From an uncultured Chloroflexia bacterium (GTDB lineage Bacteria > Chloroflexota > Anaerolineae > CG2-30-64-16), in assembly GCA_963810095.1 (NCBI GenBank), contig CAWEMM010000009.1:416001-480000 (forward strand): DNA of 64,000 nucleotides. Direction: 5' to 3'. Below the pieces are notes generated by a model. The model did no database searches and was not told the origin of the DNA. It saw nothing but the letters and a program-made list of their open reading frames with translations. Positions 22,339-46,397 of the stretch are shown here, in pieces (within the stretch, counting starts at the first letter, position 1; each line of letters begins with the position of its first letter). The position numbers and the translations under genes were made by a program.

Positions 22339-22426
22339 CAAACGTGTTTTGGGTGATTGACAAACGTGAGCAGTGGTGCTAATCTGTGCATGCAAATAGT
22401 GAATAGCATGATTCACAAACGTGAAT
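22339..22426 (+). promoter_or_regulatory. Sigma70-type promoter with repeated operator-like motif
   Basis: TTGACA (22357), 17 bp spacer, TAATCT (22380) with TGn extension; CAAACGTG at 22339, 22361 and 22416; palindrome ATTCAC-AAAC-GTGAAT at 22411-22426. Confidence 0.7.
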
Positions 22427-22468
22427 GACCTCTTCCATTCATCGGCGTCTCACGGAGATTACACCACT

Positions 22469-24581
22469 ATGGATATTGCCACCGCAGAGATGACGCAGGA
22501 CGCGGCCCACCGCGACGGCGGGCCACGAGAATCGAACCTTTCCCGCGAGCGTCTCCTGGAGCTGTTCTACAAGATGACCCTCACGCGTGCCTTCGAAGAG
22601 GCCGCGTGGAGCCAGTACGGCCTCGGTAAGGTACACGGGACGATGCACCTGTGCATCGGCCAGGAGGCTGTAGGCATTGGAGCCATTGCCGCGATCCGGC
22701 CCGACGACTACATCGTTTCCACCCACCGCGGCCATGCCCACGCCATCGGCAAGGGGCAAGACGTGCGCGAGATGATGGCCGAGCTGCTGGGCAAAGAGAA
22801 CGGCGTCTGCCACGGCCGGGGCGGCTCGATGCACATGGCCGACGTGAACCTGGGCAGCCTGGGCGCGAACGGCGTGGTGGGCGGGGGCTTGCCGCTGTCG
22901 GTCGGTGCGGGCCTTGCACTCAAGCTGAAGCACCCGACGGGTGATTCGCCGGTGGTGATCTGCTTCTTCGGCGACGGCGCCTCAAACGAGGGCGCGTTCC
23001 ACGAGTCGATCAACATGGCTTCCGTGTGGAAGCTCCCCGTGATCTACCTCTGCGAAAACAACCAGTACGGCATGTCGAACTCGGTCAAGAACGCCATGAG
23101 CGCCCGCCAGATGATCGACCGGGCCCCGGGCTACGGCATTCCCGGCAAGCAGGTTGACGGGATGGACGTGCTGGCGGTCTACGAGGCGATCAGCGAAGCG
23201 GCCGAGTACGTGCGAGCGGGCAACGGCCCCATCCTGATCGACGCGCTCACTTACCGCTACCTGGGGCACTCGAAGAGCGACCGGCAGCTTTATCGGACGA
23301 AGGACGAGGTCGAGGCCTGGAAGCAGCGCGATGCGATCGCCGCCTTCGAGCGTTACTTGCTGAGCGCCGGCGTTGCCTCACAGGACGAACTGGACGCCCT
23401 CAAGACGAAGGCGGACGCGGCCATCGAAGAAGCCATCGCGTACGGCGACGCCGGGCCCGAGCCGCAGGTGGCCCACCTCATGCGCGACGTATACGCCGAA
23501 GACCCGGCCGTACTGGCACAGCCGGAGCGGGTCTTGCCCAAGTGGGCGTCCGCGACATTCGGAACCGCGACCCGCATCAACCCGCCCGCAGGCGAGCGGG
23601 TGATCACCTACTCGGAGGCGCTGCGCGAGGCGATGGCCCAGGCGCTGTCCTCTGACCCGAAGGTATTCATGCTGGGCGAGGATATCGGCGTGTACGGCGG
23701 TGCATTCGGCGTCACAAAGGACCTGGTGGAGGAGTTCGGCCGCGACCGCGTGCGCGACACGCCGATCTCGGAAAACGCGATCATCGGGGCTGCCACCGGC
23801 GCGGCGGTGCTGGGCATGCGGCCGATCGCCGAAATGCAGTTCCAGGACTTCATCACGCTGGGTATGGAGCAGACGGTGCTCCAGGCCGCCAAGATTCGCT
23901 ACATGTTCGGCGGCAAGGCGACCGTGCCGATGGTCGTGCGGATGCCGGCCGGCTCGGGCACGGGCGCGGCTGCGCAACACTCGGAGAGCCTCGAATCCTG
24001 GTTCCTGAGCGTGCCGGGCATCAAGGTGGTGGCGCCTGCGAGCGCGTACGATGCCAAGGGGCTGCTGCTGGCCGCGCTGGCCGACGACAACCCGGTGATG
24101 TTCGTCGAGAACAAGCTGCTGTACAAGAGTAAGGGCGCAGTGCCCGTCGAGCCCTACATCGTGCCGCTGGGCAAGGCCGCGGTGCGCCGCCAGGGCCAGC
24201 ACGTGAGCATTGCGGCGACGTCGATCATGGTGCACCGGGCGCTCGAAGCGGCCAAGCAGCTGGAAGCCGAGGGCGATCGAGCTCGAGGTCATCGACCTGC
24301 GCACGCTGAAGCCGCTCGACAACGAGACGATCATCGCCTCGGTCAAGAAGACCGGGCGCCTGCTGGTGGTGCACGAGGCGCCGCTGTTCGGCGGCTTTGG
24401 CGGCGAAATTGCGGCCATGATTGCCCAAAGCGAGGCCTTCGCGTACCTGGAAGCGCCCATCGTGCGCCTCGGCGGCGAAGACGTGCCGATCCCGTACAAC
24501 CCGAAGCTGGAAAAGGCCGCCGTACCGCAGGTCGATAACATCGTCGCCGCCGCACGCAAGCTCGCCCGGACCGAGATCTAG
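22469..24581 (+). CDS. Fused ThDP-dependent dehydrogenase E1 alpha+beta, acetoin dehydrogenase (AcoAB)-like (+1 frameshift near 24275)
   Basis: [42 protein letters not shown]; beta part [14 protein letters not shown]; C-terminus [14 protein letters not shown] lies in the next frame. Confidence 0.9.
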
Positions 24582-24585
24582 AATG

Positions 24586-24671
24586 GGACGCAGATTGAAC
24601 TGATTCACTGATCTTCCTGATTTTATCAGCGAGGTCATGCGAATCGACTCAGTCAGTTAGATCAGGCGTCC
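24586..24671. repeat. 9-bp-periodic hairpin element, GGACGCAGAT family
   Basis: GGACGCAGATTGAACTGATTCACTGATCTTCCTGAT...AGTCAGTTAGATCAGGCGTCC. Confidence 0.7.
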
Positions 24672-24686
24672 TATTAGGGGTACGAA

Positions 24687-26141
24687 ATGCCAACACCCGT
24701 GATTATGCCCAAGTTCGAGATGACCCAGGAGACGGGCAAGGTCCTTGCGTGGCTCAAGCGTGAGGGCGAGCACGTGAACAAGGGCGAAGCACTTCTCGAA
24801 GTCGAGACCGACAAGGTCAACCAGGAAGTCGAGTCGCCTGCTACGGGCGTGCTCACCGGCATTTGCGCCGCGCCCGGGCAGGTAGTGCCGATCGCCGCTC
24901 CCATCGCCTACATTCTCAAGCCAGGGGAAACCGCTTCAGGTTTCTCTTCTCCTTCCTTGGGTGCGGCTGAGACGACCCCTGGCTCGGGCCGGGGCCCGGA
25001 GTCGTCCCAGCCGGCGCCGAGTCAGGCGGCCGACGATGCCCCGAAAGTCACACCGCTGGCCGCCCGCCTCGCGCAAGAGTATGGCGTCGACCTGTCCAAG
25101 GTCACGGGTACCGGCCCGATGGGGCGGATCACCCGGGAAGACGTGACGGCTGCATCCGCGGCGCAAGCTGAGGCCGGGCCCACGCCGCCCGTGGCCGACG
25201 GCAAGGTGCGCGCGGTTCCGGCAGCGCGACGGGTGGCTCGCGAGATGGGTGTCGACCTGCGCACGGTAAAGGGCACGGGGCCCGAGGGTCGGGTTCAACC
25301 GGAAGACGTGGCGGCCACGGGCGCGGCGCCGTCGACCCTGGCTGCATCCCAGCCCGTCGCTCCCGCCGTGCAGCCGGAACCGGCCGCTCCAGCGCTTCTG
25401 GACGCGAGTGCCGGGGGTCCCAAGGTGCGCAGGGTCGTGCCGCTCACAAATATCCGCAAGACGATTGCCGAGCGGATGGTGGCCAGCGTGCGCGAGGCGC
25501 CGCAGTTCAGCGTCAGCCTCGATGTGGACATGACCCGCAGCCTCGGCATCGTGGAAGATGTCAAGTCCGTCGTGCAAGGGCTGGCGCCGGACCCCAGCCG
25601 GCCGAAAATCACGCTCACTGCGCTGGTCGTCAAGGCCGTCGCCTATGGGCTGGCGGCACACCCGGCCGCAAACGCCTCGTATAGCACTGAAGGGATTGTC
25701 GAATACGAGGACGTCAACGTCGGCGTGGCCACCGCAATCGACTCTGGCCTCATTGTTCCGGTGGTACGCTCGGCAAACATTCTCGGCTTGCGGGGCATCG
25801 CCGTCGCATTGGGCGACCTGACGACCCGGGCACGTGAGGGCAGGCTGAAGCTGGACGACCTGACCGGCGGCACCTTCACCGTGTCCAACCTCGGAATGTT
25901 CGGGATCGAGACGTTCACCGCGATCCTGAATCCGCCGCAGGCCGCGATTCTGGCGGTCGGCAAGGTGACCAAGCGGGCTGTCGTGGTTTCGGCCCCCTCC
26001 GGGGAAGACAAGGTCGAGATCAAGCCCATGGCCTCGCTGACGCTCACCGCGGACCACCGCGTGCTCGACGGCGCCTCCGCAGCCCGGCTGCTGGCAACGA
26101 TCCAAAGCGTCCTGGAACACCCGGGACTCCTGCTGGAATAA
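24687..26141 (+). CDS. Dihydrolipoamide acyltransferase E2
   Basis: Lipoyl motif EVETDKVN; two subunit-binding domains (GTGPMGRI, GTGPEGRV); FTVSNLGMFG; DHRVLDG. Confidence 0.93.
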   Translation: MPTPVIMPKFEMTQETGKVLAWLKREGEHVNKGEALLEVETDKVNQEVESPATGVLTGICAAPGQVVPIAAPIAYILKPGETASGFSSPSLGAAETTPGSGRGPESSQPAPSQAADDAPKVTPLAARLAQEYGVDLSKVTGTGPMGRITREDVTAASAAQAEAGPTPPVADGKVRAVPAARRVAREMGVDLRTVKGTGPEGRVQPEDVAATGAAPSTLAASQPVAPAVQPEPAAPALLDASAGGPKVRRVVPLTNIRKTIAERMVASVREAPQFSVSLDVDMTRSLGIVEDVKSVVQGLAPDPSRPKITLTALVVKAVAYGLAAHPAANASYSTEGIVEYEDVNVGVATAIDSGLIVPVVRSANILGLRGIAVALGDLTTRAREGRLKLDDLTGGTFTVSNLGMFGIETFTAILNPPQAAILAVGKVTKRAVVVSAPSGEDKVEIKPMASLTLTADHRVLDGASAARLLATIQSVLEHPGLLLE

Positions 26142-26151
26142 GACAGGAACA

Positions 26152-26275: not shown

Positions 26276-27361
26276 ATGGCCGTACCTATGCTCCAGGTGG
26301 CGATGGACTACATCTCGCTGCCGCCCGCGCTCGCGATGGCCGTCAAGGTCGCGCCCGAGGTTGATATCATCGAGATCGGCACCCCGCTATGCAAGGCGGT
26401 CGGGCTAGACGGGATCCGCGCGATCCGCGACCTGGTCGGTCCAGACAAGCTGATCCTGGCCGACTTCAAAAGCCCCGACGTGGGTGGGCTGGAAGCGAAG
26501 ATGGCGTTCGATGCCGGCGCGGACATGATGACCGTGATCGGCGGCGCAGCCCTCGCTACGGTCGAGTCCGCATTGCAGGCGGCCAAGGAAGCACGCAAGG
26601 AAATGCTGATGGAGCTCACCGGCGTGCGCGATATCGTGGCCCGGGCAAAGGAATGGCGCCAGATCGGCGTGGAGCGGATGGTGTACCACCGGGGCTGGGA
26701 CGAGCAAACGTTCAACCGCCAGTGGGGCGACGACGACCGCAAGACGGTCCAGACGCTCATCGACATGGGCTTCAAGATCACCGTTACCGGCGGCATCAAC
26801 AAGAGCATGCTGCCCTTTTTCGCCTCGCTGGCCGTGTCCGTCGTCATCTGCGGTCGTGGCATTCGCGAGACGCCCGACCCGCGTCAGTCGGCGCACGAGT
26901 TCAAGGCGGAGATGACCCGCTTGTGGGGGAGCGGCGCCGCGGCGGCGCCTGCGTTTCCCGGTGGAAAAGTGGCCGCAGCCAGCGCCGCTGAAAACGCAGC
27001 CAAGGCCATCCGGTGGGGCGTGAGCGAAATGGGCTTGCTGCTGACCGCGGATGGTCGGGAGTGCCCGGGCTGTGATTCGTCGCAGCGCGTCTGCTGGGGC
27101 ACGCGCACCGAAGTCGTCGCACCGCAAGGCACACGGGCGGACGACCTCGTCAGCCGCATCGGCCAGTCCTTCGGACGCAGCGCGGCCTTCGGCAAAGTGA
27201 ATGACGCCGTCATCTTCCTCGACCCGGCCCAACTGCAGACGGGATCGATCAACGAGGTGCTCGAGTTGCTCCGTGCAGCGGGCAACGCAGCCCGGTCGGC
27301 CGGCGCAGCCATAGATGTGAGCGCCGGCGTGAATGTGGCAGACAAGATTCTGCGGAACTAA
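26276..27361 (+). CDS. ulaD: 3-keto-L-gulonate-6-phosphate decarboxylase / hexulose-6-P synthase family protein with ~140-aa C-terminal extension
   Basis: PMLQVAMD, DIIEIGT, LADFKSPD, ELTG, VYHR, DMGFKITVTGG and LWG parallel E. coli UlaD; the extension follows. Confidence 0.82.
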   Translation: MAVPMLQVAMDYISLPPALAMAVKVAPEVDIIEIGTPLCKAVGLDGIRAIRDLVGPDKLILADFKSPDVGGLEAKMAFDAGADMMTVIGGAALATVESALQAAKEARKEMLMELTGVRDIVARAKEWRQIGVERMVYHRGWDEQTFNRQWGDDDRKTVQTLIDMGFKITVTGGINKSMLPFFASLAVSVVICGRGIRETPDPRQSAHEFKAEMTRLWGSGAAAAPAFPGGKVAAASAAENAAKAIRWGVSEMGLLLTADGRECPGCDSSQRVCWGTRTEVVAPQGTRADDLVSRIGQSFGRSAAFGKVNDAVIFLDPAQLQTGSINEVLELLRAAGNAARSAGAAIDVSAGVNVADKILRN

Positions 27362-27477: not shown

Positions 27478-27894
27478 ATGAGCCAGTCCAATATCGACCT
27501 GGTCCGCCGCTACTACCAGGTCACGAGCGGCGATCTCGCTGGGATCGAGGAGATCGTTTCCCCCGACTTCATCGACCATCACTTCCCCCCGACCCTGCCG
27601 CAGGGTCCTGAGGGCGTCAAGGCGTTCTTCAACGACGTCCTCGGCGCCTTCACCCACCGCCGAATTGACATCTTCGACATCTTCGCGGCGGAAGACCGCG
27701 TCGGCGTGCGCTTCGAGCTTGTCGCCAACCACAGCAGCGAGTTTGCCGGCTACAAGCCGTCTGGACAGCAGATTACATGCGGCGCCATGAGCATGTTTCG
27801 GGTAGAGGACGGCAAGCTGGCCGAGGGCTGGGAAACAGCCGACCTGTTCGGCCTGTTCAAGCAGCTCCAAGCCCTGCAGACCGTAGCCGCCTAG
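27478..27894 (+). CDS. SnoaL-like ester cyclase (NTF2 fold)
   Basis: NIDLVRRYY, PDFIDH, GPEGVK, AEDRVGVR, FRVEDGKLAEGW. Confidence 0.85.
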   Translation: MSQSNIDLVRRYYQVTSGDLAGIEEIVSPDFIDHHFPPTLPQGPEGVKAFFNDVLGAFTHRRIDIFDIFAAEDRVGVRFELVANHSSEFAGYKPSGQQITCGAMSMFRVEDGKLAEGWETADLFGLFKQLQALQTVAA

Positions 27895-27900
27895 GGATTC

Positions 27901-27961
27901 AATACAAAGGCACAAAGGCACGACGGCATAGATAACCTTTGTGACGTAGTGTCGCCGTGTT
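27901..27961. repeat. Degenerate ACAAAGGC short-period hairpin element
   Basis: ACAAAGGCACAAAGGCACGACGGC...CTTTGTGACGTAGTGTCGCCGTGT. Confidence 0.55.
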
Positions 27962-27989
27962 GAGCGCTGCCGACGAAGGAAGGTCGAAG

Positions 27990-29093
27990 ATGATCAAGGT
28001 TTTTGAAGCACCTCGCAAGTATGTCCAGGGCGTGGGCGTGATGGCCGAGGCCGGCAGGTGGGTGGCTCCGCTGGGGAAGCGCGCGCTGATCGTGTGGGGC
28101 GCGACGGTCAAGCAGCAGGTCGGCGACACCCTTGTCGAGTCGCTGCTCGGCGCGGGCGTCGAGCCGATTTCGTACGAGTGTCGCGGCAACTGCACCCGCT
28201 CTCAGATTGCGGACGGCGTCGCGCTGGCCAAGGCCGAGCGCGCCGAAGTCGTCCTTGGCGTCGGCGGCGGCCGGTCCATCGACATGGCCAAAGCGATCGC
28301 CTGGGAGACGTGCAGCAAGGTCGTCTCCATCCCCACTGTCGCATCCAACGATGCCCCCACGAGCGCCGAAACGGTCTACTACACAGACGAGGGCGCGATG
28401 GACGGGTGGGGTGTTTGGCCCTACAACCCCGACGTCGTGTTGGTCGACACGCAGGTGGTCGTGGACGCACCGGTGGAATGGCTGGTGTCGGGCATGGGCG
28501 ATGCGGTCGCGACCTGGTTCGAGGCCGAGGCTGCGTACAAGGGCCGCCGCACGGCCATTGCGGGCGGCGTGTCCACCATCACAGCGCTTAAGCTGGCCGA
28601 GCTCTGCTACGACCTGCTGATGGAATACGGCGTGCAGGCCCGCCAGGACGCGGCCAACCACGTGGTCACCCCGGCCGTCGAGCGAATCGTGGAAGCCAAC
28701 ACCCTCCTTTCGGGTTTGGGCTTCGAGAGTTCGGGCGTGTGCACGGCCCACGCGGTGGCGAACGGGCTGACCGTCCGCAAGGAAACCGCCGGCTGCTCGC
28801 ACGGCCAGAAGGTTGCTTTTGGCCTGGCTGCCCAGCTCTGCCTGGACGAGGACATTACGCAGGCAGAGCGGCTCAAGGTCATCGACTGGATGGTGGCGGT
28901 GGGCTTGCCTGTCACCTTTGAAGAACTGGGCCTGGGGCACATCAGCCGCCAGGAAATCATGGACCTGGCGAGCCAGTTCGCCGGCGACGGCTCGATCGCG
29001 CATAACCACGTTCAGCAGGTCACGGCATTCGACATGTACAGCGCGCTCGTCGCGGCCGACTCGCTCGGCCACCAGCGACGCGCCTTGCAGTAA
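27990..29093 (+). CDS. gldA: Glycerol dehydrogenase family
   Basis: APRKYVQG, GVGGGRSID, PTVASNDAPTS, GMGDAVATWFEA, NTLLSGLGFES, HAVANG, HGQKVAFG. Confidence 0.88.
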   Translation: MIKVFEAPRKYVQGVGVMAEAGRWVAPLGKRALIVWGATVKQQVGDTLVESLLGAGVEPISYECRGNCTRSQIADGVALAKAERAEVVLGVGGGRSIDMAKAIAWETCSKVVSIPTVASNDAPTSAETVYYTDEGAMDGWGVWPYNPDVVLVDTQVVVDAPVEWLVSGMGDAVATWFEAEAAYKGRRTAIAGGVSTITALKLAELCYDLLMEYGVQARQDAANHVVTPAVERIVEANTLLSGLGFESSGVCTAHAVANGLTVRKETAGCSHGQKVAFGLAAQLCLDEDITQAERLKVIDWMVAVGLPVTFEELGLGHISRQEIMDLASQFAGDGSIAHNHVQQVTAFDMYSALVAADSLGHQRRALQ

Positions 29094-29153: not shown

Positions 29154-29474
29154 ATGGCACCAACACAGGTACAGATGACGGCGTTGGGGATGGTGGAGAC
29201 TCGCGGGCTCGTGGCCTCCATCGAGGCAGCCGACGCGATGAGCAAGGTCGCCTATGTCCGGCTCGTGGCGCAAGAGGAGATTGGGGGCGGATACGTCACC
29301 ATCTTCGTACGGGGCGAGGTGGGCGCGGTGCAGGCCGCAGTCGATGCCGGGGTGGCGGCTGCTAAGCGGGCCGGCGAGCTGGTGACGGCGCACGTGATCG
29401 CCAGGCCCCATGCGCTGGTCGAGAAGCTGCTGCCGACTGGCGAAACCAAAGTGGTTCGCGCGCTGGCAGACTGA
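29154..29474 (+). CDS. BMC-H hexameric shell protein (PduA/EutM/CcmK family)
   Basis: [39 protein letters not shown]. Confidence 0.95.
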
Positions 29475-29485: not shown

Positions 29486-30118
29486 ATGGACCTACGGACT
29501 TACGTGCTTATCGATTCCATGCAGCCGCAATATGCCGCATTGACAGGCATCCTGCTGCAGGGTGACACGCCGGTCGAGGGCATGGCGGAGATCTTCATGG
29601 AGCTTGCCCCTGCCAGCGACGTGTACGAAGTGCTCGACGCGGCGCTCAAGACCACCGACGTGCGCCCCGGCCTGCTCCGGGTAGAGCGCGAATACGGCAC
29701 GCTGGAAGTGCACGGGTTCTTCCAGGAAAACGTCAAGGTGGCCGGCCGCGAGGCGCTTGCCAAGTTCGGCCTGACCGAGGCGGACCGGTGGAAGCCGGAA
29801 GTCGTCTCTGTCAAGACCGTCACCGGGGTCGATCCCTGGGAGGCCCAGCTGGTGAACCAGGCCAGCCGCGGCGGCCTGCTGCTGAAGGGGCAGACGCTGT
29901 GCGTGATCGAGGTGGTGCCGGCGGCGTACGTCATGCTGGCGGCCAACGAGGCGGAAAAGGCTTCGAATATCACCCTCGTGCATTATCAGCCGGCGGGCAA
30001 GTTCGGCCGGCTCTACATCTCGGGCACCGAGTCTGCAGTACGGGTGGCGCGTGACGCGGCGGTAACGGCAGTCAACAGCCTGCCGGGCACTGTGCGGAGC
30101 GGCAAGGGCGCGGCCTAG
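29486..30118 (+). CDS. BMC-T permuted tandem-domain shell protein (CcmP/CsoS1D-like, BMC-Tdp)
   Basis: LRTYVLIDSMQPQ, VEREYGTLEVH, PAAYVMLAANEAEKA, FGRLYISG. Confidence 0.92.
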   Translation: MDLRTYVLIDSMQPQYAALTGILLQGDTPVEGMAEIFMELAPASDVYEVLDAALKTTDVRPGLLRVEREYGTLEVHGFFQENVKVAGREALAKFGLTEADRWKPEVVSVKTVTGVDPWEAQLVNQASRGGLLLKGQTLCVIEVVPAAYVMLAANEAEKASNITLVHYQPAGKFGRLYISGTESAVRVARDAAVTAVNSLPGTVRSGKGAA

Positions 30119-30174: not shown

Positions 30175-30531
30175 GTGAAGACATTTATCACTGCTGAGGA
30201 CATCGAGACGCTGGCCGCTCAGGGCGTGCACGAGCTGACCGTGGATGAAGACACCGTGCTGACCGCCGTCGCTCGCGAGGCAGCGGCCCAGCGAGGGATC
30301 AGGCTGGTGGCGCCTGGCGCCAACAAGCCGGGTTTCTCTACTGCGGGCGAAGCCGGCGCGGAACCTGGTCTGGCTCCGGCGGCGGTGTCTGGCAAACCCA
30401 AAGGCTGCCAGCACGGCCCGCTCAGTGCGGGTGGCGGTGCGCCCCGCAGTGCAGCCGCGGCAGGCAGCCCGGTCGTGGACGAACTGATCGGCGCCGTCAA
30501 GCAGATGGCGCGTGTGCAGAGCACACGTTAG
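30175..30531 (+). CDS. BMC-associated small protein with a putative encapsulation peptide
   Basis: GGAGGAG RBS plus GTG; N-domain FITAEDI..VLTAVAREAA..RGIRL; Pro/Ala linker; C-terminal amphipathic VVDELIGAVKQM. Confidence 0.75.
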   Translation: MKTFITAEDIETLAAQGVHELTVDEDTVLTAVAREAAAQRGIRLVAPGANKPGFSTAGEAGAEPGLAPAAVSGKPKGCQHGPLSAGGGAPRSAAAAGSPVVDELIGAVKQMARVQSTR

Positions 30532-30562: not shown

Positions 30563-30865
30563 GTGATTATCGCAAAGGTCGTTGGCTCGGCCGTCGCTTC
30601 GATCAAGCTCGATGCGCTCCAATCCACCAAGCTCCTGGTAGTCCGTCCGGCGGACGCCCAGGGGAACGCAACCGGCGCGCCGCTGCTTGCAGTGGACCTG
30701 GTGGGTGCGGGCGAAGACGAGCTGGTCATGGTCAGCGAGGGCTCTTCGGCCCGGATGGCGTGTGCGGGCGCCCAGGGTAGTGATCGTTCGCCCGCCGACG
30801 CAGCCATTATCGGCATTCTTGATTCCCTGCGCTACTACGGGGATTTGGTTTACAGGAAGGCATGA
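30563..30865 (+). CDS. BMC-P pentameric vertex protein (EutN/CcmL family)
   Basis: AKVVGSAVASIK, KLLVV, AVDLVGAG, GSSAR, PADAAIIGILD. Confidence 0.95.
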   Translation: MIIAKVVGSAVASIKLDALQSTKLLVVRPADAQGNATGAPLLAVDLVGAGEDELVMVSEGSSARMACAGAQGSDRSPADAAIIGILDSLRYYGDLVYRKA

Positions 30866-30868: not shown

Positions 30869-31186
30869 ATGACGCAACCGAATGACACCCAGACCGAGAT
30901 GGACCCGGGCATGCGGGCGCTCGGCATGATCGAAACCAAGGGACTGATCCCCTGCATCGAGGCCGCAGACGCCATGGTGAAGGCGGCGAACGTCAAGCTG
31001 CTTCAGCGCCGGGCGATCGGCGCGGGTTACATGACCGTGATGGTGCGTGGAGACGTGGGCGCGGTGCGGACTGCGCTGGAAGCGGGCAGCCAGGCCGCCC
31101 GGCGGTTGGGCCAGGTCGTTTCCGTGCGCATCTTGCCAAGTCCGCATCTGGATCTCGAGCAGATCCTGCCCGAGAGCGTGGAGTAA
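30869..31186 (+). CDS. BMC-H hexameric shell protein, second copy
   Basis: ALGMIETKGL, EAADAMVKAANV, RGDVGAV. Confidence 0.95.
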   Translation: MTQPNDTQTEMDPGMRALGMIETKGLIPCIEAADAMVKAANVKLLQRRAIGAGYMTVMVRGDVGAVRTALEAGSQAARRLGQVVSVRILPSPHLDLEQILPESVE

Positions 31187-31190: not shown

Positions 31191-32039
31191 GTGGCAACCC
31201 CTCACGTGACACCGTCGGCTCTGCGGGCCAAAAAGAACCGCGGTCAGAAGATCGTGATGCTGACCGCATACGACTTCCCGATGGCCTCGTTCATCGAGCA
31301 GGCGGGCGCGGACATCGTCTTGGTCAGCGACGCGGTCGGCACGGTGGGCAACGGTCGTGGCGAGGCGGTGTCGGTGTCGGTCGACGAGATGATCTACCAC
31401 ACGCGCTCGGTTCGCAACGGCTGCAAGCGCTGCATGGTCATCACGACGATGCCGTTCGCCTCGTACAACACGCCTGACGACGCGCTGCGCACGGCGTCCC
31501 GGCTGATGAAGGAAGGCGGCGCGGACGGCGTCCATCTCGAAGGAACGCGCCGCGAAGCCTGCTGGATCGGCGACATGACGGCCGCGGGGATTCCGGTCAT
31601 GGGCCACGTGGGCGTCACCAAGCAGAAGATCATCGCGACCGGTCGAATCAAGCTGCCGGGGCAGGACGCCGCGAGCGCACGGGAGATCATCGCCGACTCG
31701 GTCGAGATGGCGCGCCAGGGTGCGTTTGCGCTCGTGCTCGAGTGCCTGCCCGTGGCGCTGGGCCGGATCATCACCGGCAGCCTGGACATCCCGACCATCG
31801 GGATCGGTTCCGGGCCTGACTGCGACGGACAAGCGCTGGTGACACAGGACATGCTGGGACTGTTCAAGGAACTGTCGCCGCGCTTCCTGAAGGTCTATGC
31901 GGACCTGGCCGGTGTCACTGTCTCGGCGCTGACCCAGTTCCGCAAGGAAGTCGAAGGCGGAACCTTCCCGGCGCCCGAACACACGTATGCGATCGACGAA
32001 GGCGAGCTGCAGAAGCTGTTGTCTCAGCTACGCGGCTAG
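31191..32039 (+). CDS. panB: Ketopantoate hydroxymethyltransferase (PanB) paralogue with altered active site
   Basis: MLTAYD, MIYH, MPFASY, PVMGHVG, VLEC, PTIGIGSGPDCDGQ; deviations at canonical D84, K112 and S46. Confidence 0.8.
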   Translation: MATPHVTPSALRAKKNRGQKIVMLTAYDFPMASFIEQAGADIVLVSDAVGTVGNGRGEAVSVSVDEMIYHTRSVRNGCKRCMVITTMPFASYNTPDDALRTASRLMKEGGADGVHLEGTRREACWIGDMTAAGIPVMGHVGVTKQKIIATGRIKLPGQDAASAREIIADSVEMARQGAFALVLECLPVALGRIITGSLDIPTIGIGSGPDCDGQALVTQDMLGLFKELSPRFLKVYADLAGVTVSALTQFRKEVEGGTFPAPEHTYAIDEGELQKLLSQLRG

Positions 32040-32116: not shown

Positions 32117-32867
32117 ATGGCGGAATCTCTCAACGGGAAGGTGGCGGTCATCACGGGCGTGGGCTCCGGGTTCGGGAAGGCCACAGCCGAGTTGTTCGCC
32201 AGCAAGGACCAGGCCGGCCTGGTGCTGATCGACAGAAACGAGACAGCCCTCGCCGAAACCGCGGAGTGCTGCAAGGTCGCCGGCTCGAAGGTCGTGGCGA
32301 TTCAGGCGGACGTGACGAAGCCGGAAACTTTTGAGAAGGCGCTGGCCGCAGCGCTGGACAACTGGGGCAAGGTGGATTTCCTCATCAACTACGCCGGGCG
32401 GTGCGCTCAAGGTGGCGCCCATCGAGGAGATGGATGATGAGATCAACCGCAAGATCATCGACCTGAACCTCACCAGCGTGATCATGAGCTGCCGGACCTT
32501 CACCCCCCAATTCAAGAAGCAGGGTTTCGGCAAGATCATCAACGTCTCCAGCGCCTGCGACCGCCGGTGCTGGCAGGGTTGGTCGGTCTACTCGGCCGCC
32601 AAGGCCGCGGTGAACACGTTCACCAAGTGCCTGTACACGGAGCTCCGGCCGCACGGCGTTGCCGTCATGTTGCTCGTGCCCGGCGGCTCGAACACCGGCT
32701 TCCAGGCGGCTGCAGAGGGCGTGGGCAAGTTCGACTGGGACGAAGAGCTGGCCGTCCGGCCCGAGCACTTCGCCGACATGGTGTACCAGGCCTGCGCGCT
32801 CAGCAAAGGCGGCTGCGTGGTCGAGATGCTCGTCTATGGGCTGGCCCAGGATGTGAGCGGCTTCTAG
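32117..32867 (+). CDS. Short-chain dehydrogenase/reductase (+1 frameshift near 32397)
   Basis: TGVGSGFG, ADVT, INYAG, then IINVSS and YSAAK in the next frame. Confidence 0.88.
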
Positions 32868-33032
32868 CCAACGCGGAACCAGGAGGCGCGCTCGCCGGCA
32901 GACCACCCGTCCAAGCCTTGCCTCCACAGTGCGAGCTCCACTCTATCGCGGTTAGCGGGGATCGTCCCCGAGCAGTTGAGCGCCCAACCCGGCGCTCGAA
33001 AAGGTCTCTCAGCAAGACAGGAGGAGTCTCAA

Positions 33033-35183
33033 GTGAAGAAGCAGTTGTTCACCCTGTTGGGCGTGCTGGTCGTGATCAGCATGCTCCTCACGGCCTGCGG
33101 CGGCGCTGCGCCAGCGCCCGCGGCCGCCCCGACCGAGGCCCCGAAGGCCGCGCCGACCGCGGCCCCGGCCCCCACCGAGGCCCCGAAGGTCGAGGCCACG
33201 ACCGCCCCCGCGCCTGCGGCCGGCGAACTGAAGCCGGCGACGGACAAGCCGATGAAGATTGCGTTCTTCGTGTCTGACATGACGAACGTGTTCCACCAGG
33301 GTCAGGCGACCGAAGCGCAGAAGTACGCCAAGGATAAGTACGGGGCCGAGGTGTTCATCTTCGATGGCAAGTCCGACTCGGCGACGATGACGGCGAACGT
33401 GGATCAGATCATGGCCCAGGGCATGGATGCGGCGACGCTGCACATCTGGGACTATGAGACGGTCAAGCCGGCGGTCGAGGAGATGCTGAAGAAGGGCATC
33501 GTGCTGACGTCGTTCTTCAGCCCGTTGGGCGACAGCGGCATCCCGGTTGCGCGCTCGGACGAGAAGGGTGTCTCGTTTGAGATGGGTGCGCAGATGGCGA
33601 AGGAGTGGAAGGCGGCGCATCCCGACAAGCCGATCGTGATGATGCAGTTGGGTTGGCCGAACCACACCGAGGTGAAGTCGGGTCGTACGGATCCGTTCGT
33701 AGCGGGCGTGAAGTCGGTGGACCCGACGGCGACGGACCTGGGCTGCCAGGATGCGTCGAAGGGTGCGGATGCGGCGAAGCAGATCATCAAGGACATCGTG
33801 ACGCAGCATCCGGAAGTCAACCTGATCTACTCGGAAGCGTCGAACCTGACGGTTGGGACGATGGCCGGGCTGACCGAGGCGGGCCGCGGCAAGTACGCCG
33901 ATGGCAAGCCGCTGACGGAAATCGTGGCGTCGGTGGACTTCGACGAGTCGGAGTACAAGCAGGTCTACGACCCGAACAGCTCGCTGAAGTACTCGATGGG
34001 TCTGCCGCCCATCGAGACGGGCCAGGGCCGCATCGACCTGATCATGGACGTCGCCGCAGGCAAGCTGCCGATGGCCTCGCAGCCGGCTGCGGAAGAATTC
34101 TACAAGGCTTACAACGTCAACCACCTGACCATGCCGCAGGCGGATGCAGCCGCCTGGCTGAACAAGCAGTTCGGCACCAGCATCGCCGCACCTGCGGCTG
34201 CCGCACCTATGGCTGGCGACTTCAAGCCGGCGACGGACAAGCCGATGAAGATTGCGTTCTTCGTGTCTGACATGACGAACGTGTTCCACCAGGGCCAGGC
34301 GACCGAAGCGCAGAAGTACGCCAAGGATAAGTACGGGGCCGAGGTGTTCATCTTCGATGGCAAGTCCGATTCGGCGACGATGACGGCGAACGTGGATCAG
34401 ATCATGGCCCAGGGCATGGATGCGGCGACGCTGCACATCTGGGACTATGAGACGGTCAAGCCAGCGGTCGAGGAGATGCTGAAGAAGGGCATCGTGCTGA
34501 CGTCGTTCTTCAGCCCGTTGGGCGACAGCGGCATCCCGGTTGCGCGCTCGGACGAGAAGGGTGTCTCGTTCGAGATGGGTGCGCAGATGGCGAAGGAGTG
34601 GAAGGCGGCGCATCCCGACAAGCCGATCGTGATGATGCAGTTGGGTTGGCCGAACCACACCGAGGTGAAGTCGGGTCGTACGGATCCGTTCGTAGCGGGC
34701 GTGAAGTCGGTGGACCCGACGGCGACGGACCTGGGCTGCCAGGATGCGTCGAAGGGTGCGGATGCGGCGAAGCAGATCATCAAGGACATCGTGACGCAGC
34801 ATCCGGAAGTCAACCTGATCTACTCGGAAGCGTCGAACCTGACGGTTGGGACGATGGCCGGGCTGACCGAAGCGGGCCGCGGCAAGTACGCCGATGGCAA
34901 GCCGCTGACGGAAATCGTGGCGTCGGTGGACTTCGACGAGTCGGAGTACAAGCAGGTCTACGACCCGAACAGCTCGCTGAAGTACTCGATGGGTCTGCCG
35001 CCCATCGAGACGGGCCAGGGCCGCATCGACCTGATCATGGACGTCGCCGCAGGCAAGCTGCCGATGGCCTCGCAGCCGGCCTCGGAGGAGTTCTACAAGG
35101 CTTACAACGTCAACCACCTGACCATGCCGCAGGCGGATGCAGCCGCCTGGCTGAACAAGCAGTTCGGCACCAACATCAAGTAA
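33033..35183 (+). CDS. Sugar ABC substrate-binding lipoprotein with two near-identical binding domains
   Basis: GGAGGAG plus GTG; LLTAC lipobox; PTEAPK linker; RbsB-like domain present twice. Confidence 0.9.
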   Translation: MKKQLFTLLGVLVVISMLLTACGGAAPAPAAAPTEAPKAAPTAAPAPTEAPKVEATTAPAPAAGELKPATDKPMKIAFFVSDMTNVFHQGQATEAQKYAKDKYGAEVFIFDGKSDSATMTANVDQIMAQGMDAATLHIWDYETVKPAVEEMLKKGIVLTSFFSPLGDSGIPVARSDEKGVSFEMGAQMAKEWKAAHPDKPIVMMQLGWPNHTEVKSGRTDPFVAGVKSVDPTATDLGCQDASKGADAAKQIIKDIVTQHPEVNLIYSEASNLTVGTMAGLTEAGRGKYADGKPLTEIVASVDFDESEYKQVYDPNSSLKYSMGLPPIETGQGRIDLIMDVAAGKLPMASQPAAEEFYKAYNVNHLTMPQADAAAWLNKQFGTSIAAPAAAAPMAGDFKPATDKPMKIAFFVSDMTNVFHQGQATEAQKYAKDKYGAEVFIFDGKSDSATMTANVDQIMAQGMDAATLHIWDYETVKPAVEEMLKKGIVLTSFFSPLGDSGIPVARSDEKGVSFEMGAQMAKEWKAAHPDKPIVMMQLGWPNHTEVKSGRTDPFVAGVKSVDPTATDLGCQDASKGADAAKQIIKDIVTQHPEVNLIYSEASNLTVGTMAGLTEAGRGKYADGKPLTEIVASVDFDESEYKQVYDPNSSLKYSMGLPPIETGQGRIDLIMDVAAGKLPMASQPASEEFYKAYNVNHLTMPQADAAAWLNKQFGTNIK
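33231..35172 (+). repeat. Intragenic direct repeat, 2 x ~949 bp, period 993 bp
   Basis: 33231-34179 and 34224-35172 differ at only about 10 positions that I could see, mostly synonymous. Confidence 0.95.
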
Positions 35184-35200
35184 CGACCAGTTAGCACGCT

Positions 35201-35297
35201 TTGCCACGGAGAGCACAGAGGGCGCAGACGCGGCTGAGAGCGCAGCAACTCTCTGCCTCTCGCCCACCCTCTGAGACCTTTGTGATCTCTGTGGCAA
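35201..35297. repeat. 9-bp-periodic hairpin element, GCCACGGAGAGCACAGAG family
   Basis: TTGCCACGGAGAGCACAGAGGGCGCAGA...CTCTGAGACCTTTGTGATCTCTGTGGCAA. Confidence 0.7.
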
Positions 35298-35328
35298 CCT
35301 TGCATCCTGTCCCGGGAGGGGGCTTGGC

Positions 35329-36892
35329 ATGGAACTGACTGATAGTGGCTCGGGACGAGACAACGTTCTCGAAATTCGGGACCTGGTCAAGGAATTCCCC
35401 AGCGTGCGGGCGGTCAACAGTGTCAGTTTTGACATCAAGCGGAATACCGTTCACTGCCTCGTTGGCGAGAACGGCGCAGGGAAGAGTACGCTGATCAAGA
35501 TTCTGACAGGCGCATACCAGCGCACCAGCGGCAAGATCCTGCTGAACGGCGAAGAGTATGCGGCGGCCAGCACGAAGGAAGCCAAAGAGAAGGGCATCAG
35601 CACCCTGTTCCAGGAACTGAACGTGGTCGACCAGCTGACCGTGGAAGAAAATCTGACGCTGGGCATGGAGGACACCCGATTTGGGTTCCTGCGGAAGACC
35701 GACAAGATCAACAAGATCGTCAGCGTGATGAACAGCCTCGAGCCGTCCATCCGTCCGCAGCAGCTGGTTGCCGAGCTCAGCGTTGCGAAGAAGCAGATCG
35801 TGGAGATCGCCAAAGCGGTCGCCACCGAGTCGGACATTATCATCATGGACGAGCCGACCGCCGCCTTGTCCGAGGGCGAAATCGCCCGGCTCTTCAAGAT
35901 CATCCGCGGCTTGCGCGAACGCAATGTCACCGTGGTCTACATCTCGCACCGGCTCGACGAGATCTTCGAGCTCGGCGACTACGTCACGGTCATGCGCGAC
36001 GGCCGGCACATCGACACCAAGCCCATCTCCCAGGTCAAGGACCGGTCGGAGCTGATCAAGATGATGATCGGCCACACCGTCTTCGAGCAGTACACGCCGC
36101 GCATGCGGGACTGCGACGACCTGATCCTCGAGGTGCGCCACCTCTCCAATCACAAGCTCCAGGACGTCTCGTTCAGAGGTGCCCAAGGGCGAGATCGCCG
36201 GGTTCTACGGCCTGGTGGGTGCGGGCAAAACCGAGTTGGCCCGGGCCATTTACGGCGCGGACCCGTATACCGGGGACATCATTTTCAAGGGCAAAAAGCT
36301 GCCGCAGTCGCCCGACCGTGTTATCGAGGCGGGCATCGCATTGGTGCCCGAGGAGCGGCGCTCGCAGGGCCTCTTCACGTTGCTGACCATCCGGGGCAAC
36401 GTTCCGGTCATGAATATGAAGAAGATCTCGCGCGGCGGCTTCGTCAGCGGAGCCCACGAGCGCGAGGTCACGCTCGAATATATCGACAAGCTCAGGATTG
36501 CCACCAGCAGCATCGAGAAGGAAGCCGCGCAACTGTCGGGCGGCAACCAGCAGAAGGTGGTGCTCTCTAAGTGTCTTTTCGCCGATGCCGACCTGCTCAT
36601 GCTGGACGAACCCACCCGCGGCATCGACGTGGGCGCAAAGAGCGAGATCTACAGCATCATCCGCCAGCTTGCCGCCGACGGCAAGTCAATCCTGATCTTC
36701 TCCTCGGAGCTCCCCGAGGTCATGAACATCTGCGATACGATCTACCTGCTGTATGACGGGAGCCTAAAGGAGACGATTCGCAACGGCTGCGACGTCGACA
36801 GTGAGATGATCATGCATGCGGTGTCCGGCGTGGCAGACGCGGATGGCACGGCCACAGCTGCCGGCGCCATCAGGGCGACGGAGGGAGAATGA
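35329..36892 (+). CDS. Sugar ABC ATPase, RbsA/MglA-type tandem NBD (+1 frameshift near 36175)
   Basis: GENGAGKST, MDEPTAAL, YISHRL; second half VPEERR, LSGGNQQKV, DEPTRGIDVGAK. Confidence 0.92.
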
Positions 36893-37923
36893 GCGTCCAA
36901 ACAACTACGCCCGCGCAGAAGGCGCGTGCGACCAGCCGGATGAGCAACGAGACGTTCATCACGCTCTTCATGGCCGGCGTGCTCCTGGTCGTGTTCCTGG
37001 TGGCGTGTCTCTTCGTGCCAAACTTCTTCACCCCGAAGAACATCGTCAACATCCTGACGAACAACTGGTACATCGTCATTATCGGCATCGGCGTAACGTT
37101 CCTCCTGATCACGGGCAACTTCGACATGTCGGTGGGCGGAGTCATCGCCTTGACCGGCGTACTGTCCGTGTGGTTCGTCCAGGGGGTGAACGTCTCGCGC
37201 AACGTACTGGCGAACGGCCTGGGCCTGCCCTACCCGGTCGCCATTGCGCTCGCCCTGCTGTGTGCGATGGGCGTCGGTGGCCTCAATGCGTTCTTCATCG
37301 CGAAACTTAAGGTGCCCTCCATTATCGTCACCCTGGGCACCGCGATGCTCGCCCGGGGCACTGCCCAGGTCATTACCCAGGGCGCACAGCGCAACACGAG
37401 CCTGCCTGACATTTTCGGGGTCGTCGGCAACGCCGCGATCCCCGGCACGACCGTGAAGGTTTCCGTGCTGATTATGATTGCCCTGATGATCGCGGCCTAC
37501 ATCTTCGAGCGCAGGACGGTGCCCGGCCGGCGGACGTACCAGATTGGCGCCAACCCGGAGGCCGCCCGGCTGTCCGGCATCAAGGTGACGCGGCAGCTCA
37601 CGCTGCTGTACATCCTGAGCGCGCTGCTCGCCGGCATCACCGGCATCCTCCTGACGTCCGAATACAAAGCCGGCCTGTCGAGCCGCGCCGTGGGCTACGA
37701 GTTCGACGCCCTGGTCGTGACGCTGCTGGGCGGCGTCAGCATCGCAGGCGGCTTTGGATCGGTGCTCGGCATGTTCGTCGGCGCAATCCTGCTCTCGGTG
37801 ATGACGACCGCCGCCACGGGCCTGCTGCTCTCGCCCGACTGGCAGTTCACGCTGAAGGCCCTCGTGACCTTTGCCGCAATTCTGGCGCAGCGGTGGGCAC
37901 TTGATCGCCGCAGCAGGGGCTAA
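36889..37923 (+). CDS. Sugar ABC permease (RbsC-like)
   Basis: GNFDMSVG, IIVTLGT, IGANPEAARLSGI, YEFDAL..LLGGVSI. Confidence 0.93.
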   Translation: MSVQTTTPAQKARATSRMSNETFITLFMAGVLLVVFLVACLFVPNFFTPKNIVNILTNNWYIVIIGIGVTFLLITGNFDMSVGGVIALTGVLSVWFVQGVNVSRNVLANGLGLPYPVAIALALLCAMGVGGLNAFFIAKLKVPSIIVTLGTAMLARGTAQVITQGAQRNTSLPDIFGVVGNAAIPGTTVKVSVLIMIALMIAAYIFERRTVPGRRTYQIGANPEAARLSGIKVTRQLTLLYILSALLAGITGILLTSEYKAGLSSRAVGYEFDALVVTLLGGVSIAGGFGSVLGMFVGAILLSVMTTAATGLLLSPDWQFTLKALVTFAAILAQRWALDRRSRG

Positions 37924-38018
37924 AGGCGTAGCTGAGCGCCCCACCGGGTAACGGCCGAGCGGCTAGCCCGCCTGGTGCGCTCCGCAAGTGTGGGCGGACG
38001 AACGAAAGGGAGATACTC

Positions 38019-39063
38019 ATGACAACAAGCCAAGTGTCGATGCGTAAGACTCAGGGTCAGAACGACCGGTCAGACGCTTTGCGTTCGGCAGTGAAGAAAT
38101 ACTATATCTACGCGGTCCTGCTGGTTATCGTGATCGTCTTTAGCCTGGCCAAGGTAAACACAGTGGGGTTGTTCGGCCGCGGCGCCTTCCTTAGCCCCGA
38201 CAGCGTCATCAACATGCTGCGCATCTCGGCCCCGATCCTTACCTTAAGCGGCGCGTTCACCCTGCTGATGATCTCCGGCTACATCGACCTCTCCGTCGGC
38301 AGCGCGATGAGCCTCGCCGCTGTCGTGTTCAGCTTGCTGATCCTCAACCGGGTGCCTTTCATCCTGGCCGTTGCCGCGACCCTGGTTGTCGGCATCGGGA
38401 TGGGCTTGCTGAACGGGTTCAACGTGATGAAGCTGCGGATCACCCCCGTTATCGCGACGCTGGTCACGCTCAATCTCTTCAAGGGCATCGCACTGCTGAT
38501 CGTACCGGACGGCACCTCGGCCATCAAGAGCACGGCGGTGCAGAAAATGCCCGCGATGATTAACTACTATGCCCGGCAACCCGTGATTCTCGGTCTGCCG
38601 CTGGCCTTCTTCGTCGCTATCGCCGTGATCGTCGGGCTGGTCATCGTCCAGCGGAAGACCATCCTGGGCAAATATGCCGCGGCGATTGGCGGCAACCGCA
38701 TGGCAGCGGAATTGTCGGGCATCAGCCCCGTCAAGTACGTCTGGATCCTCTACGTGATCGTTGGGTTATTCGCCGCCGCAGCGGGCGTCGCGCCGCGCCA
38801 GTTACATGTCGCTCGGCGATCCACTCTCCGGTGATGGCATGGAGACGGACTGCATCATCGCCGTGCTGCTTGGTGGCACGTCCTTCGCCGGCGGGGAGGG
38901 CTCGGTCGCCAAAACCATGGTGGCGGCCCTGATCCTCATGTGCGTCACGACAGGCCTGATGACGGTGATTCCCGCCTATTGGCAGACTGTGGCCAAGGGC
39001 AGCGTCCTGGTGTTCGCCGTCGTGCTGAACCACGTACTCGTGCGGCGGCGGGTGTCGGCATAA
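38019..39063 (+). CDS. Sugar ABC permease 2 (+1 frameshift near 38793)
   Basis: GYIDLSVG, IATL, IGGNRMAAELSGI; next frame AVLLGGTSFAGGEGS. Confidence 0.9.
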
Positions 39064-39168: not shown

Positions 39169-40455
39169 ATGGTCAACGCTCAGGAACGAAATGCGCTGCG
39201 CTCGCTGGCCGAGCGGTGGATGGAGCACGCGGCGAATCCCGTCATGGCGGAGCGCCGTAGGTTGTGGCGGGCCGTGAAGGATCTGCGGATGGAGCGGCCC
39301 GTGATCCTCGTCGAGACGTGCATGCTGGCCGACTATATCGGGCAGGACGAACTGGTTTGCCGCGATCCCTATCTGCGCAACGTCGAGAAGTCCATGTTCG
39401 AACTCGTACGGCACGCAGATGAGATCGGCGACGACTTCATCCTGGACCCGTACTTCCGCATCCCCTGGGATATCCAGCTGTCGGACTACGGCGTGCCGCT
39501 GGCGGCCCACCACGCTGCTGCCACGGATGGCAGCGACGTCGGCTATGCCTACGACTTCGCGGTGCAGTCGGACGAGGACATCGACGGGCTGCACCTGCGC
39601 ACCCGCTGCGTGGATCGGGAGCTGAGCTACAGGCGCCTCGAACTGCTCCAGGACATCTTTGGCGACATCCTGCCGGTGCGCCTGGGCGGCTATGATTGGT
39701 TCAACACCGACCCGGGCTACCAGCAGTGGTTGGGCAATCTCTACTCCGGCCTGACCATGGACCTGTTCAAGATGATCGGCAACAAGAACCTCCTCTACTG
39801 GGTCTACGATCATCCCGACCGCATTCACCGCATCATGCAGCTGATCCACGACGACCGCGCGGGCCATTTCGCTTTTCTCGAGCGTGAGGGGTTGCTCTAT
39901 CAGAACACCGACACCTGGATGCCTTGTCCAGGCAGCTACGGGTTCGTCTCCGACCTGCCCGACGTACCGGGGCAGGATGGGCCGGTGGCACACGACGTGC
40001 AGCTCAAGGACTGCTGGGTCTGGCTCGAGGCGCAGGAATGCCAGCCAATCTCGCCGAAGATGTTCAACGAGATCTTCCTGCCCTATATCGCGGACGTGGC
40101 GAAGCCGTTCGGCCTGGCCTACTGGGGCTGCTGCGAGCAGGTGCACGACCGGTTCGAATACATCGCAAAGGCCGTTCCCAACCTACGCGGCGTGAGCGTC
40201 TCGGGCTGGAGCAACCCCTGGAAGACGGCCGAGTTGCTGGGGCAGAAGTACGTTTACTCGCGGAAGCCGACGCCGGCCTACATCAGCGGCCCGAATCCGC
40301 AATGGGACCTGGTCGAGAAAGACCTGGCCGACACGCTGACTGCGGCCCGCGACTGCAACCTCGAGCTCTGTTTCCGGGATATCTACACCGTCGACGGCGA
40401 CAGGTCACGCCTGCGCCGGTGGGTGGACATGGCCCGGGCCATGATGAATGGATAG
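39169..40455 (+). CDS. Uncharacterised UroD/MtaA-superfamily-like TIM-barrel protein
   Basis: ISPKMFNEIFLPY, YWGCCE, SVSGW, YSRKP. Confidence 0.65.
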   Translation: MVNAQERNALRSLAERWMEHAANPVMAERRRLWRAVKDLRMERPVILVETCMLADYIGQDELVCRDPYLRNVEKSMFELVRHADEIGDDFILDPYFRIPWDIQLSDYGVPLAAHHAAATDGSDVGYAYDFAVQSDEDIDGLHLRTRCVDRELSYRRLELLQDIFGDILPVRLGGYDWFNTDPGYQQWLGNLYSGLTMDLFKMIGNKNLLYWVYDHPDRIHRIMQLIHDDRAGHFAFLEREGLLYQNTDTWMPCPGSYGFVSDLPDVPGQDGPVAHDVQLKDCWVWLEAQECQPISPKMFNEIFLPYIADVAKPFGLAYWGCCEQVHDRFEYIAKAVPNLRGVSVSGWSNPWKTAELLGQKYVYSRKPTPAYISGPNPQWDLVEKDLADTLTAARDCNLELCFRDIYTVDGDRSRLRRWVDMARAMMNG

Positions 40456-40552
40456 CGCACGCGCCAAGCCCGAGTGACGGACTCGGGATGCAGTCCCGTG
40501 GGAGGCCAACGCCTGCCACCGGGACACTGCACTTCCAGCCGAAGGGGGTTCC

Positions 40553-41428: not shown

Positions 41429-41536
41429 GGGGATTCTGCCACCCAGAAGTACGAAGACGTGTTCGAGATCTACGAGCAGATCTATCCGGCCCTGCGACCG
41501 GTCAATCAGCAGCGGTATGCCAGGCTTGTCGGATGA
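41429..41536 (+). pseudogene. Relic 3' end of an FGGY-type kinase gene
   Basis: Translates GDSATQKYEDVFEIYEQIYPALRPVNQQRYARLVG*, resembling the terminal helix of xylulokinase-type kinases; no start codon. Confidence 0.5.
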
Positions 41537-41611
41537 TGGTGCGCTAACCACGAACGTCTGACTAATAAGCGTCCATTTCCAGACCGGGACGCCGCTGGAG
41601 GAGACATTGGC

Positions 41612-43152: not shown

Positions 43153-43175
43153 CCCACCGTTCAGAGGAGCTTATC

Positions 43176-46390: not shown

Positions 46391-46397
46391 CTCATTT

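Follow-up and report, generated by a model that had tools for sequence, protein, structure and literature searches.

Most metabolosomes rely on an aldehyde dehydrogenase to process acetaldehyde or propionaldehyde, and in most of them the cargo is loaded by short helical peptides. The two enzymes KGPDC (the decarboxylase of 3-keto-L-gulonate 6-phosphate) and hexulose-6-phosphate synthase (HPS) are the textbook pair for evolution through promiscuity. The window analyzed here, a stretch of 64,000 nucleotides from an uncultured Chloroflexia bacterium (genome G000), contains a microcompartment (BMC) locus headed by a gene in which a barrel related to both of these enzymes is fused to a C-terminal extension. 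Whereas canonical metabolosomes carry an aldehyde dehydrogenase gene (PF00171) in the locus, none is present in the fusion locus of G000, where the nearest PF00171 match lies ~60 kb away; a second BMC locus of this genome (C11:285981-290076) has its own aldehyde dehydrogenase (PF00171). In lacking this enzyme, the fusion locus resembles the BUF-type BMCs, especially BUF3 as it appears in the type descriptions of PMC8217296, but the BUF3 cargo described there (deamidase, ferredoxin oxidoreductase and CoA-binding protein) is unlike that of the fusion locus. None of the type descriptions, as covered by seven supplements of PMC8217296, names pfam00215 or pfam02548; two large archives, which might list such loci as unassigned, lie outside this set. 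A full-text literature search, with subscription journals outside its range, yielded no title or abstract describing the locus or the fusion, and no paper combining a microcompartment with ketopantoate hydroxymethyltransferase. Within these searches, the locus appears to be a new BMC subtype, with a new domain architecture and an intermediate enzyme clade. It seems that the catalytic domain was exchanged and a folded enzyme domain retained as a tag, in an organelle without aldehyde dehydrogenase.

The fusion gene (26276..27361, on the forward strand, as are the genes and domains listed below up to 47373) is a single ORF for a protein of 361 aa, with a GAGGGG site directly 5' of the ATG. Residues 1-218 (26276..26929) are an OMPDC-suprafamily barrel, as judged by PF00215 (E 7.6e-33), the fold match to KGPDC, the tree and the residue table, and the barrel terminates in RLWG, as in E. 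coli UlaD. It is followed by a variable, unconserved Ala/Gly/Ser/Pro linker (residues 219-237; 26930..26986) of low pLDDT (<50 at residues 220-235), which continues into the first helix of the extension (residues ~238-361; 26987..27358). The extension holds ECPGCDSSQRVC and both helices quoted in a preliminary description made from the letters of the sequence, which took it for an unknown ~140-aa domain; a separate Cys domain does follow the linker, but its true size is ~125-130 aa and its origin is identifiable. Directly after the stop codon is a perfect 14-bp GC-rich hairpin followed by TTT (27372-27407), and imperfect ATCAG/CTGAT repeats form an inverted repeat upstream of the gene (26150-26265) that is partly matched by contigs from elsewhere and is possibly a dispersed repeat.

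Because the source genome has frameshifts in other genes of the region (E1, SDR, ABC and FGGY), the fusion itself was tested for an artefact. Residues 232-361 match 163 proteins of 198-632 aa (E<=0.01), and among the 120 matches listed most are 350-372 aa long and contain PF00215. The barrel and the extension occur together in 12 of 60 relatives (one frameshifted inside the extension, one cut by a contig end), and contigs from two studies, either of which may be the source sample, span the LWG junction without gaps (X1 26866-27016, X5 26871-27021). A frameshift at the G-run after LWG is ruled out by these matches, fused relatives and junction-spanning contigs; the fusion, first proposed from the single ORF, is real and not an assembly artefact.

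Upstream of the gene are those for a TPP-dependent E1 alpha-beta, with a frameshift close to its end, and for a lipoyl E2 (22421..26141), which are found in or near most loci of the fusion operon. Downstream, after an insert encoding a SnoaL-like protein and a glycerol-dehydrogenase-like Fe-ADH (27478..29093; also in L016 and L021), comes the cassette proper: a BMC-H shell protein (29154..29474; PF00936), a CcmP-like BMC-T(dp) shell protein (29486..30118; NF053796, E 1e-60 but below the cut-off), a conserved small protein (30175..30531), a BMC-P pentamer (30575..30865; PF03319), a second BMC-H (30869..31186; PF00936) and a paralogue of PanB with a rebuilt active site (31194..32039). The small protein has a TIGR02536-like N-terminus, an invariant PxGC(x)H motif whose Cys is present in 49 of 49 rows, and a C-terminal helix that by inspection looks like an encapsulation peptide; it is a candidate adaptor. 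In the PanB paralogue, GDS has become SDA, ADLPF TTMPF, VKLEG VHLEG and TPQ TKQ; it is the likely signature enzyme of the cassette, and the source genome has three other PF02548 genes. The operon continues with a frameshifted SDR and a sugar ABC transporter comprising a binding protein, an ATPase and two permeases (32117..39063), and then with genes for a URO-D-like protein, a UlaE-type 3-epimerase, a frameshifted FGGY kinase, a HAD phosphatase, a DeoR/LsrR-type regulator, an Fe-ADH-2 protein and an SMP-30 lactonase (39169..47373). The URO-D-like product (39169-40455, 428 aa) has no Pfam match; its Atlas neighbours are URO-D-like and corrinoid-associated clusters.

A scan of a genome collection gave 51 fusion loci, 50 from Chloroflexota and one from a Thermoleophilia MAG. 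In 50 of the 51, a BMC-H gene follows the fusion, the exception stopping at a contig edge, so the restriction of the extension to BMC loci, raised in the preliminary description, is supported. The PanB-like gene is present in 41 loci and seven of the ten misses stop at contig edges; in the other three (L062, L064 and L066), shell genes are present and the 10 kb examined contain no PanB-like gene. Genes of the core follow the order fusion, BMC-H, BMC-T(dp), small protein, BMC-P, BMC-H, PanB-like gene, SDR and sugar ABC transporter; BMC-H and BMC-P genes occur together, as defines a main BMC locus. The fusion family is rare, being found in none of 400 further genomes of a phylum sample.

The origin of the extension was traced through distant relatives. 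Pfam and NCBIfam gave nothing useful (a Pfam TGS match with E 0.023 was rejected as weak), and an ESM Atlas search with the extension gave no usable match. An hmmsearch of 1.84 billion (1.84e9) proteins with a profile built from 11 extension sequences yielded 35 matches, four of them full-length class-V aminotransferases (PF00266) matched over their C-terminal ~120 residues (E 3.3e-22 for P0132); between extension and aminotransferase, identity is 36% over 123 aa, the Cys loop included. No clear standalone extension is found among the 35 matches, the short ones of which look like fragments, and three (P0126, P0130 and P0148) look chimeric. In the PDB, pyridoxamine-pyruvate aminotransferase (2z9u) and AGT1 (6pk1, E 1.3e-5) are found by a 57-row profile. 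A model of the domain by itself (pLDDT 86.5) aligns with serine:pyruvate aminotransferase 3zrp over 118 residues (Z 15.5, rmsd 2.1 A), and its list of fold matches is filled by small domains of PLP fold-type-I enzymes, the class-V members 3zrp, 2z9u, 6pk1 and PucG (3isl) sharing the C-terminal small-domain fold at Z 13.8-15.5. The extension is thereby identified as a class-V PLP aminotransferase's C-terminal small domain. Unlike these enzymes, it lacks the PLP-binding large domain with the catalytic Lys, the small domain alone being present, and the FRVG motif of the intact aminotransferases, the Arg of which we take to bind the substrate carboxylate, is FxLD in the fusions; the replaced motif and the absent PLP domain indicate that the extension is non-catalytic. 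The amphipathic helices of the preliminary description are ordinary helices of a class-V aminotransferase small domain and do not represent add-on encapsulation peptides. A degenerate BMC shell domain was also considered, given that P0118 carries PF00936, and was rejected: P0118 results from reading through into the BMC-H gene that follows, and the fold is that of the aminotransferase small domain instead.

The inserted Cys loop C263-x2-C266-x6-C273 (27062..27094), otherwise seen here only in uncharacterised aminotransferases, has all three Cys invariant in 102 of the 102 full-length relatives (among 121 sequences), and is a candidate metal site with one open ligand. A fourth Cys, at position 282, is present in 70 of these 102 relatives and is Ala in the source protein; the loop itself was modelled without metal, at pLDDT 50-66. 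Across several Anaerolineae families the extension is 39-65% identical, with differences mostly at third codon positions, and the 16 extensions tested all form one clade (SH-aLRT 100, quick tree). A metal-binding or targeting role of the extension, as proposed in the preliminary description, would fit the three invariant Cys and the co-loss with the shell cassette described below.

Intact aminotransferases and unfused barrels serve as natural experiments. Among 80 examined loci of aminotransferases related to P0132, seven have the 3-Cys loop of the extension, and six of the seven hold shell or PanB-like cassette genes: five have shell genes, one has a PanB-like gene on a 2.5-kb contig, and the seventh is a 1-kb contig. 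Cassette genes are found in none of the 22 loci of aminotransferases with a 4-Cys loop (CxxCxxC-x6-C), only six of which have at least 4 kb on both sides, many being near-identical or on short contigs, and likewise none in L072, a 50% relative without the Cys. The 4-Cys insertion, located in the small domain of uncharacterised class-V aminotransferases away from BMC genes (L073-L076, L080-L095, L097 and L099), is likely a structural metal site. Five metagenome loci (L067, L068, L069, L070 and L077) represent a sister cassette with an intact Cys-loop class-V aminotransferase; L077 has the gene order of the fusion (aminotransferase, BMC-H, BMC-T, small protein, BMC-P, BMC-H), L068 further includes an amino-acid ABC transporter along with SHMT, alanine dehydrogenase and a Ser/Thr dehydratase, and L070 has an FtsA/PilM-like (EutJ-like) gene. 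The converse case is provided by unfused barrels of the fusion clade in three genomes (G518, 98% complete; G811, 71%; G697, 85%), where the operon reads E2, barrel, SDR and ABC transporter, followed by UlaE and AraD where the contig permits. The extension (searched with a positive control), the shell genes and the PanB paralogue are all missing there; the PanB copies in G518 and G697 are only 42-43% identical, and G811 has none. In a quick tree, the unfused barrels fall within the clade of fused ones, a position suggesting that the loss was secondary. Both natural experiments indicate that the extension is part of the cassette and that the barrel is part of the sugar pathway, and the simplest history would be a single recombination event in which the barrel took over the position of the aminotransferase's PLP domain. 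L060 encodes both an unfused A169 barrel and a fused T169 barrel, and in L062, L064 and L065 A169 barrels are fused to extensions related to that of L060; the conflict between the quick barrel and extension trees in these four loci makes a second barrel swap possible.

The barrel itself combines features of two enzymes. Its best solved relative is E. coli KGPDC (UlaD; E 5.6e-48, ~41% identity), with a TM of 0.95 to the KGPDC structure. Its scores are below the UlaD-type cut-offs (195 against 294 bits for NF009831, and 200.7 against 250 for the SgbH-type NF009832) and below the HxlA cut-off (169.7 against 200 bits for TIGR03128), so that by these sequence models the barrel belongs to neither KGPDC nor HPS. 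Residues were compared using Table 1 of PMC5980557 and an alignment in which six UlaD/SgbH-type rows and six annotated HxlA rows served as references. In UlaD numbering, used here unless source-protein positions are given, E33, D62, K64, D67, E112, H136 and T169 are kept (source-protein E33, D63, K65, D68, E113, H138 and T171), as is R192 (R194), whereas R139 is replaced by Trp (W141), which is present in all 102 full-length relatives. R139 is kept in all 11 KGPDC-type rows, where position 72 is L, V, F or I but E in the barrel family as in HPS. The mixed active site noted in the preliminary description is supported: P37, E72, G88, G138 and the hydrophobic W139 are HPS-like, as are the GTPL and GxLEA segments, and E112, T114, T169 and R192 are KGPDC-like. 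Compared with KGPDC, with which it shares the fold, the catalytic residues and the UlaE and AraD neighbours, the barrel differs by R139 to W, L72 to E, I37 to P and C88 to G, by its separate clade, by its C-terminal extension and by its BMC locus. Compared with HxlA (3ajx, 3f4w), with which it shares the HPS-like positions, it differs by its KGPDC-type residues, and a PHI gene is often nearby; the HPS set D112, A169 and G/S192 is E, T and R in the source protein, and the HPS-type A169 occurs only in one sub-branch (L062, L064, L065, L194 and the unfused barrel of L060). The domain fused here is none of the PHI, Fae and RraA found in the known HPS fusions (HxlAB, Fae-HPS and HPS-RraA), and the NCBIfam models for such fusions match the barrel only, not the extension. 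In a 55-row quick tree, the barrel family is apart from both the HPS and the KGPDC references; a long branch (1.1, SH-aLRT 100) connects it with the KGPDCs, and HPS is separated from the two (99). On these residues and this tree, the barrel family is a clade between HPS and KGPDC, a natural intermediate open to direct assay. A separate Anaerolineae clade of KGPDC-like proteins beside UlaE and AraD (L014, L195, L196, L209 and L210) keeps R139 and has K64R and D67E at the suprafamily catalytic positions.

The KGPDC mutations E112D/R139V/T169A appear in PDB titles, with D-ribulose 5-phosphate bound. These mutations are reported to raise HPS activity. We take T36, I37 and L72 of KGPDC to line the carboxylate pocket and E112, T169 and R192 to be among four HPS-switching positions. 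If these roles hold, the C1 pocket of the barrel would be HPS-type and its recognition of the sugar tail KGPDC-type, which predicts formaldehyde chemistry on the L-xylulose-5-phosphate series, a prediction that matches the UlaE and AraD neighbours. The occurrence of the barrel in operons that have UlaE and AraD but no PHI, together with its KGPDC-type E112, T169 and R192, favours both this series and cleavage. The reading we prefer, to which we give about an even chance, is that the fusion protein is a formaldehyde (retro)aldolase acting on L-xylulose-5-phosphate-type sugars inside a microcompartment free of aldehyde dehydrogenase; its extension probably loads this formaldehyde-handling enzyme into the organelle.

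Under this retro-aldolase reading, recombination would have joined a sugar-catabolic barrel gene to the aminotransferase gene that headed the cassette, with the small domain alone retained as a tether of the carrier enzyme to the organelle, whose fixed parts would be BMC-H, BMC-T(dp), the small protein bearing the Cys motif and putative encapsulation peptide, BMC-P, BMC-H and the remodelled PanB. The tether may act through a metal site made of three Cys and a ligand from a second chain, and the change from four to three Cys makes the small cassette protein a candidate source of the fourth ligand; complex prediction for the extension, Zn and this protein gave ipSAE 0.02 and a mark of 0.32, values that count neither for nor against such a contact. 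The barrel would carry out HPS-type chemistry (Mg-enediolate +/- formaldehyde), cleaving an L-xylo-type hex-3-ulose 6-phosphate into L-xylulose 5-phosphate and formaldehyde, and UlaE and AraD would convert the former to D-xylulose 5-phosphate. The shell would retain the formaldehyde, and the PanB-like enzyme would move it onto THF or a 2-oxoacid; in the aminotransferase version, the PLP enzyme would supply formaldehyde or a 2-oxoacid. Against this scheme stand the unfused-barrel operons without a shell, the absence of the PanB-like gene from L062, L064 and L066, the three of four HPS-switching positions (E112, T169 and R192) that are KGPDC-like, and the 25 of 49 fusion genomes in which PHI is missing. 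If the organelle does hold formaldehyde, it would give synthetic methylotrophy a natural template; the toxicity of formaldehyde is named as a bottleneck of that field in the abstract of PMC13424408. We put forward only tentatively a broader version, a formaldehyde microcompartment with interchangeable front ends, either a PLP enzyme or a hexulose-phosphate aldolase, which would carry the same ~125-aa domain with a 3-Cys site completed by a partner chain; if true, the domain would be a portable cargo tag that is folded and metal-bridged, and the barrel would provide a 'reverse RuMP' reaction of the L-series with a catabolic role.

The genomic links to one-carbon metabolism bear on the direction of the reaction. 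PHI (TIGR03127, over the cut-off) is present in 24 of 49 fusion genomes, and in a sample of relatives (61 genomes) it occurs in 3 of the 13 that have the fusion and in 1 of the 48 that lack it, counts that come from kin genomes that are not independent and from incomplete MAGs on the fusion side. In 11 genomes it lies on the contig of the fusion, within ~25 kb, and two further genomes have it in a matching operon on a different contig. Rows L178 and L171, whose contigs differ in length from those of the fusion, were dropped, and nothing turned up for L171. In the source genome, PHI is unlinked to the fusion. That gene (G000:C1:154363-154884, L149) is an orphan PHI (HxlB) beside an ORF that by inspection resembles ketopantoate reductase. 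Within their family, PHI is confined to the three genomes with the SnoaL/GldA insert after the fusion (G000, G004 and G007). Fhs, FocA and FolD occur together in 4 of 17 extended regions, in two of these on the contig of the fusion; FolD and Fhs could act on methyl groups supplied through the URO-D-like and corrinoid genes and not on free formaldehyde. The enrichment and linkage of PHI favour the same architecture and tether with the opposite direction, in which the barrel would fix formaldehyde, converting D-ribulose 5-phosphate to hexulose 6-phosphate and, via PHI, to F6P, the formaldehyde being made in the shell by the PanB-like enzyme (retro-aldol cleavage of a hydroxymethyl 2-oxoacid) or by E1/E2 (ketol cleavage). 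Further points in its favour are the order PHI, UlaE, fusion, shell, E1 and E2 in L062 and L064, with HPS-type A169 barrels, and the source genome itself, which has PHI and no HPS-like PF00215 match other than the fusion besides the likely PyrF. We nevertheless consider formaldehyde fixation unlikely as a general function, since T169, E112 and R192 are retained in most fused barrels, PHI is missing from half of the genomes with the fusion, and all four unfused-barrel genomes lack PHI yet keep UlaE; it is best suited to the A169, PHI-adjacent loci L062 and L064. Of the initial suggestion that the enzyme may fix formaldehyde, the link to formaldehyde is supported by PHI and the FolD/Fhs neighbours, but fixation is the weaker reading for most loci.

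The resemblance to UlaD/SgbH, the best match by HMM, sequence and fold, and the joining of the barrel clade with KGPDCs against HPS in the tree (SH-aLRT 99) raise a different possibility, namely that the barrel is a divergent 3-keto-L-gulonate-6-phosphate-type decarboxylase releasing CO2, with the extension serving for tethering or oligomerisation and with the PanB-like enzyme alone responsible for aldehyde chemistry in the shell. The FGGY kinase, UlaE, AraD and lactonase of the operon, classic KGPDC partners plus a lactonase, fit an acid substrate and release of CO2, and to that extent speak against the retro-aldolase reading. Decarboxylation still appears improbable in view of the change of R139 to W in all family members and of L72 to E as in HPS, and of the scores below the UlaD cut-offs; it would leave the PHI linkage without a reason, and in G001 and G014 a further KGPDC-like gene that keeps R139 is present elsewhere in the genome. 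Very improbable, finally, is a structural add-on (a Zn-stabilised oligomerisation domain) or a relic of cassette insertion with no role in encapsulation: the C-terminal helix is shared with the aminotransferases that match the fold best, presumably tetramers, and co-loss with the cassette might reflect one deletion of adjacent DNA, but the identity retained across several Anaerolineae families, with invariant Cys and differences at third codon positions, and the change from four to three Cys that tracks BMC residence in the intact aminotransferases argue otherwise.

Two observations concern the downstream part of the window. The sugar-binding protein of the ABC transporter (33018-35183) contains two nearly identical tandem PF13407 domains, with one to three copies among the loci. 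At 51284-58301, three products stand out by inspection: one is TPR/CHAT-like, one resembles a peptidase, and a small one resembles an HExxH metalloprotease.
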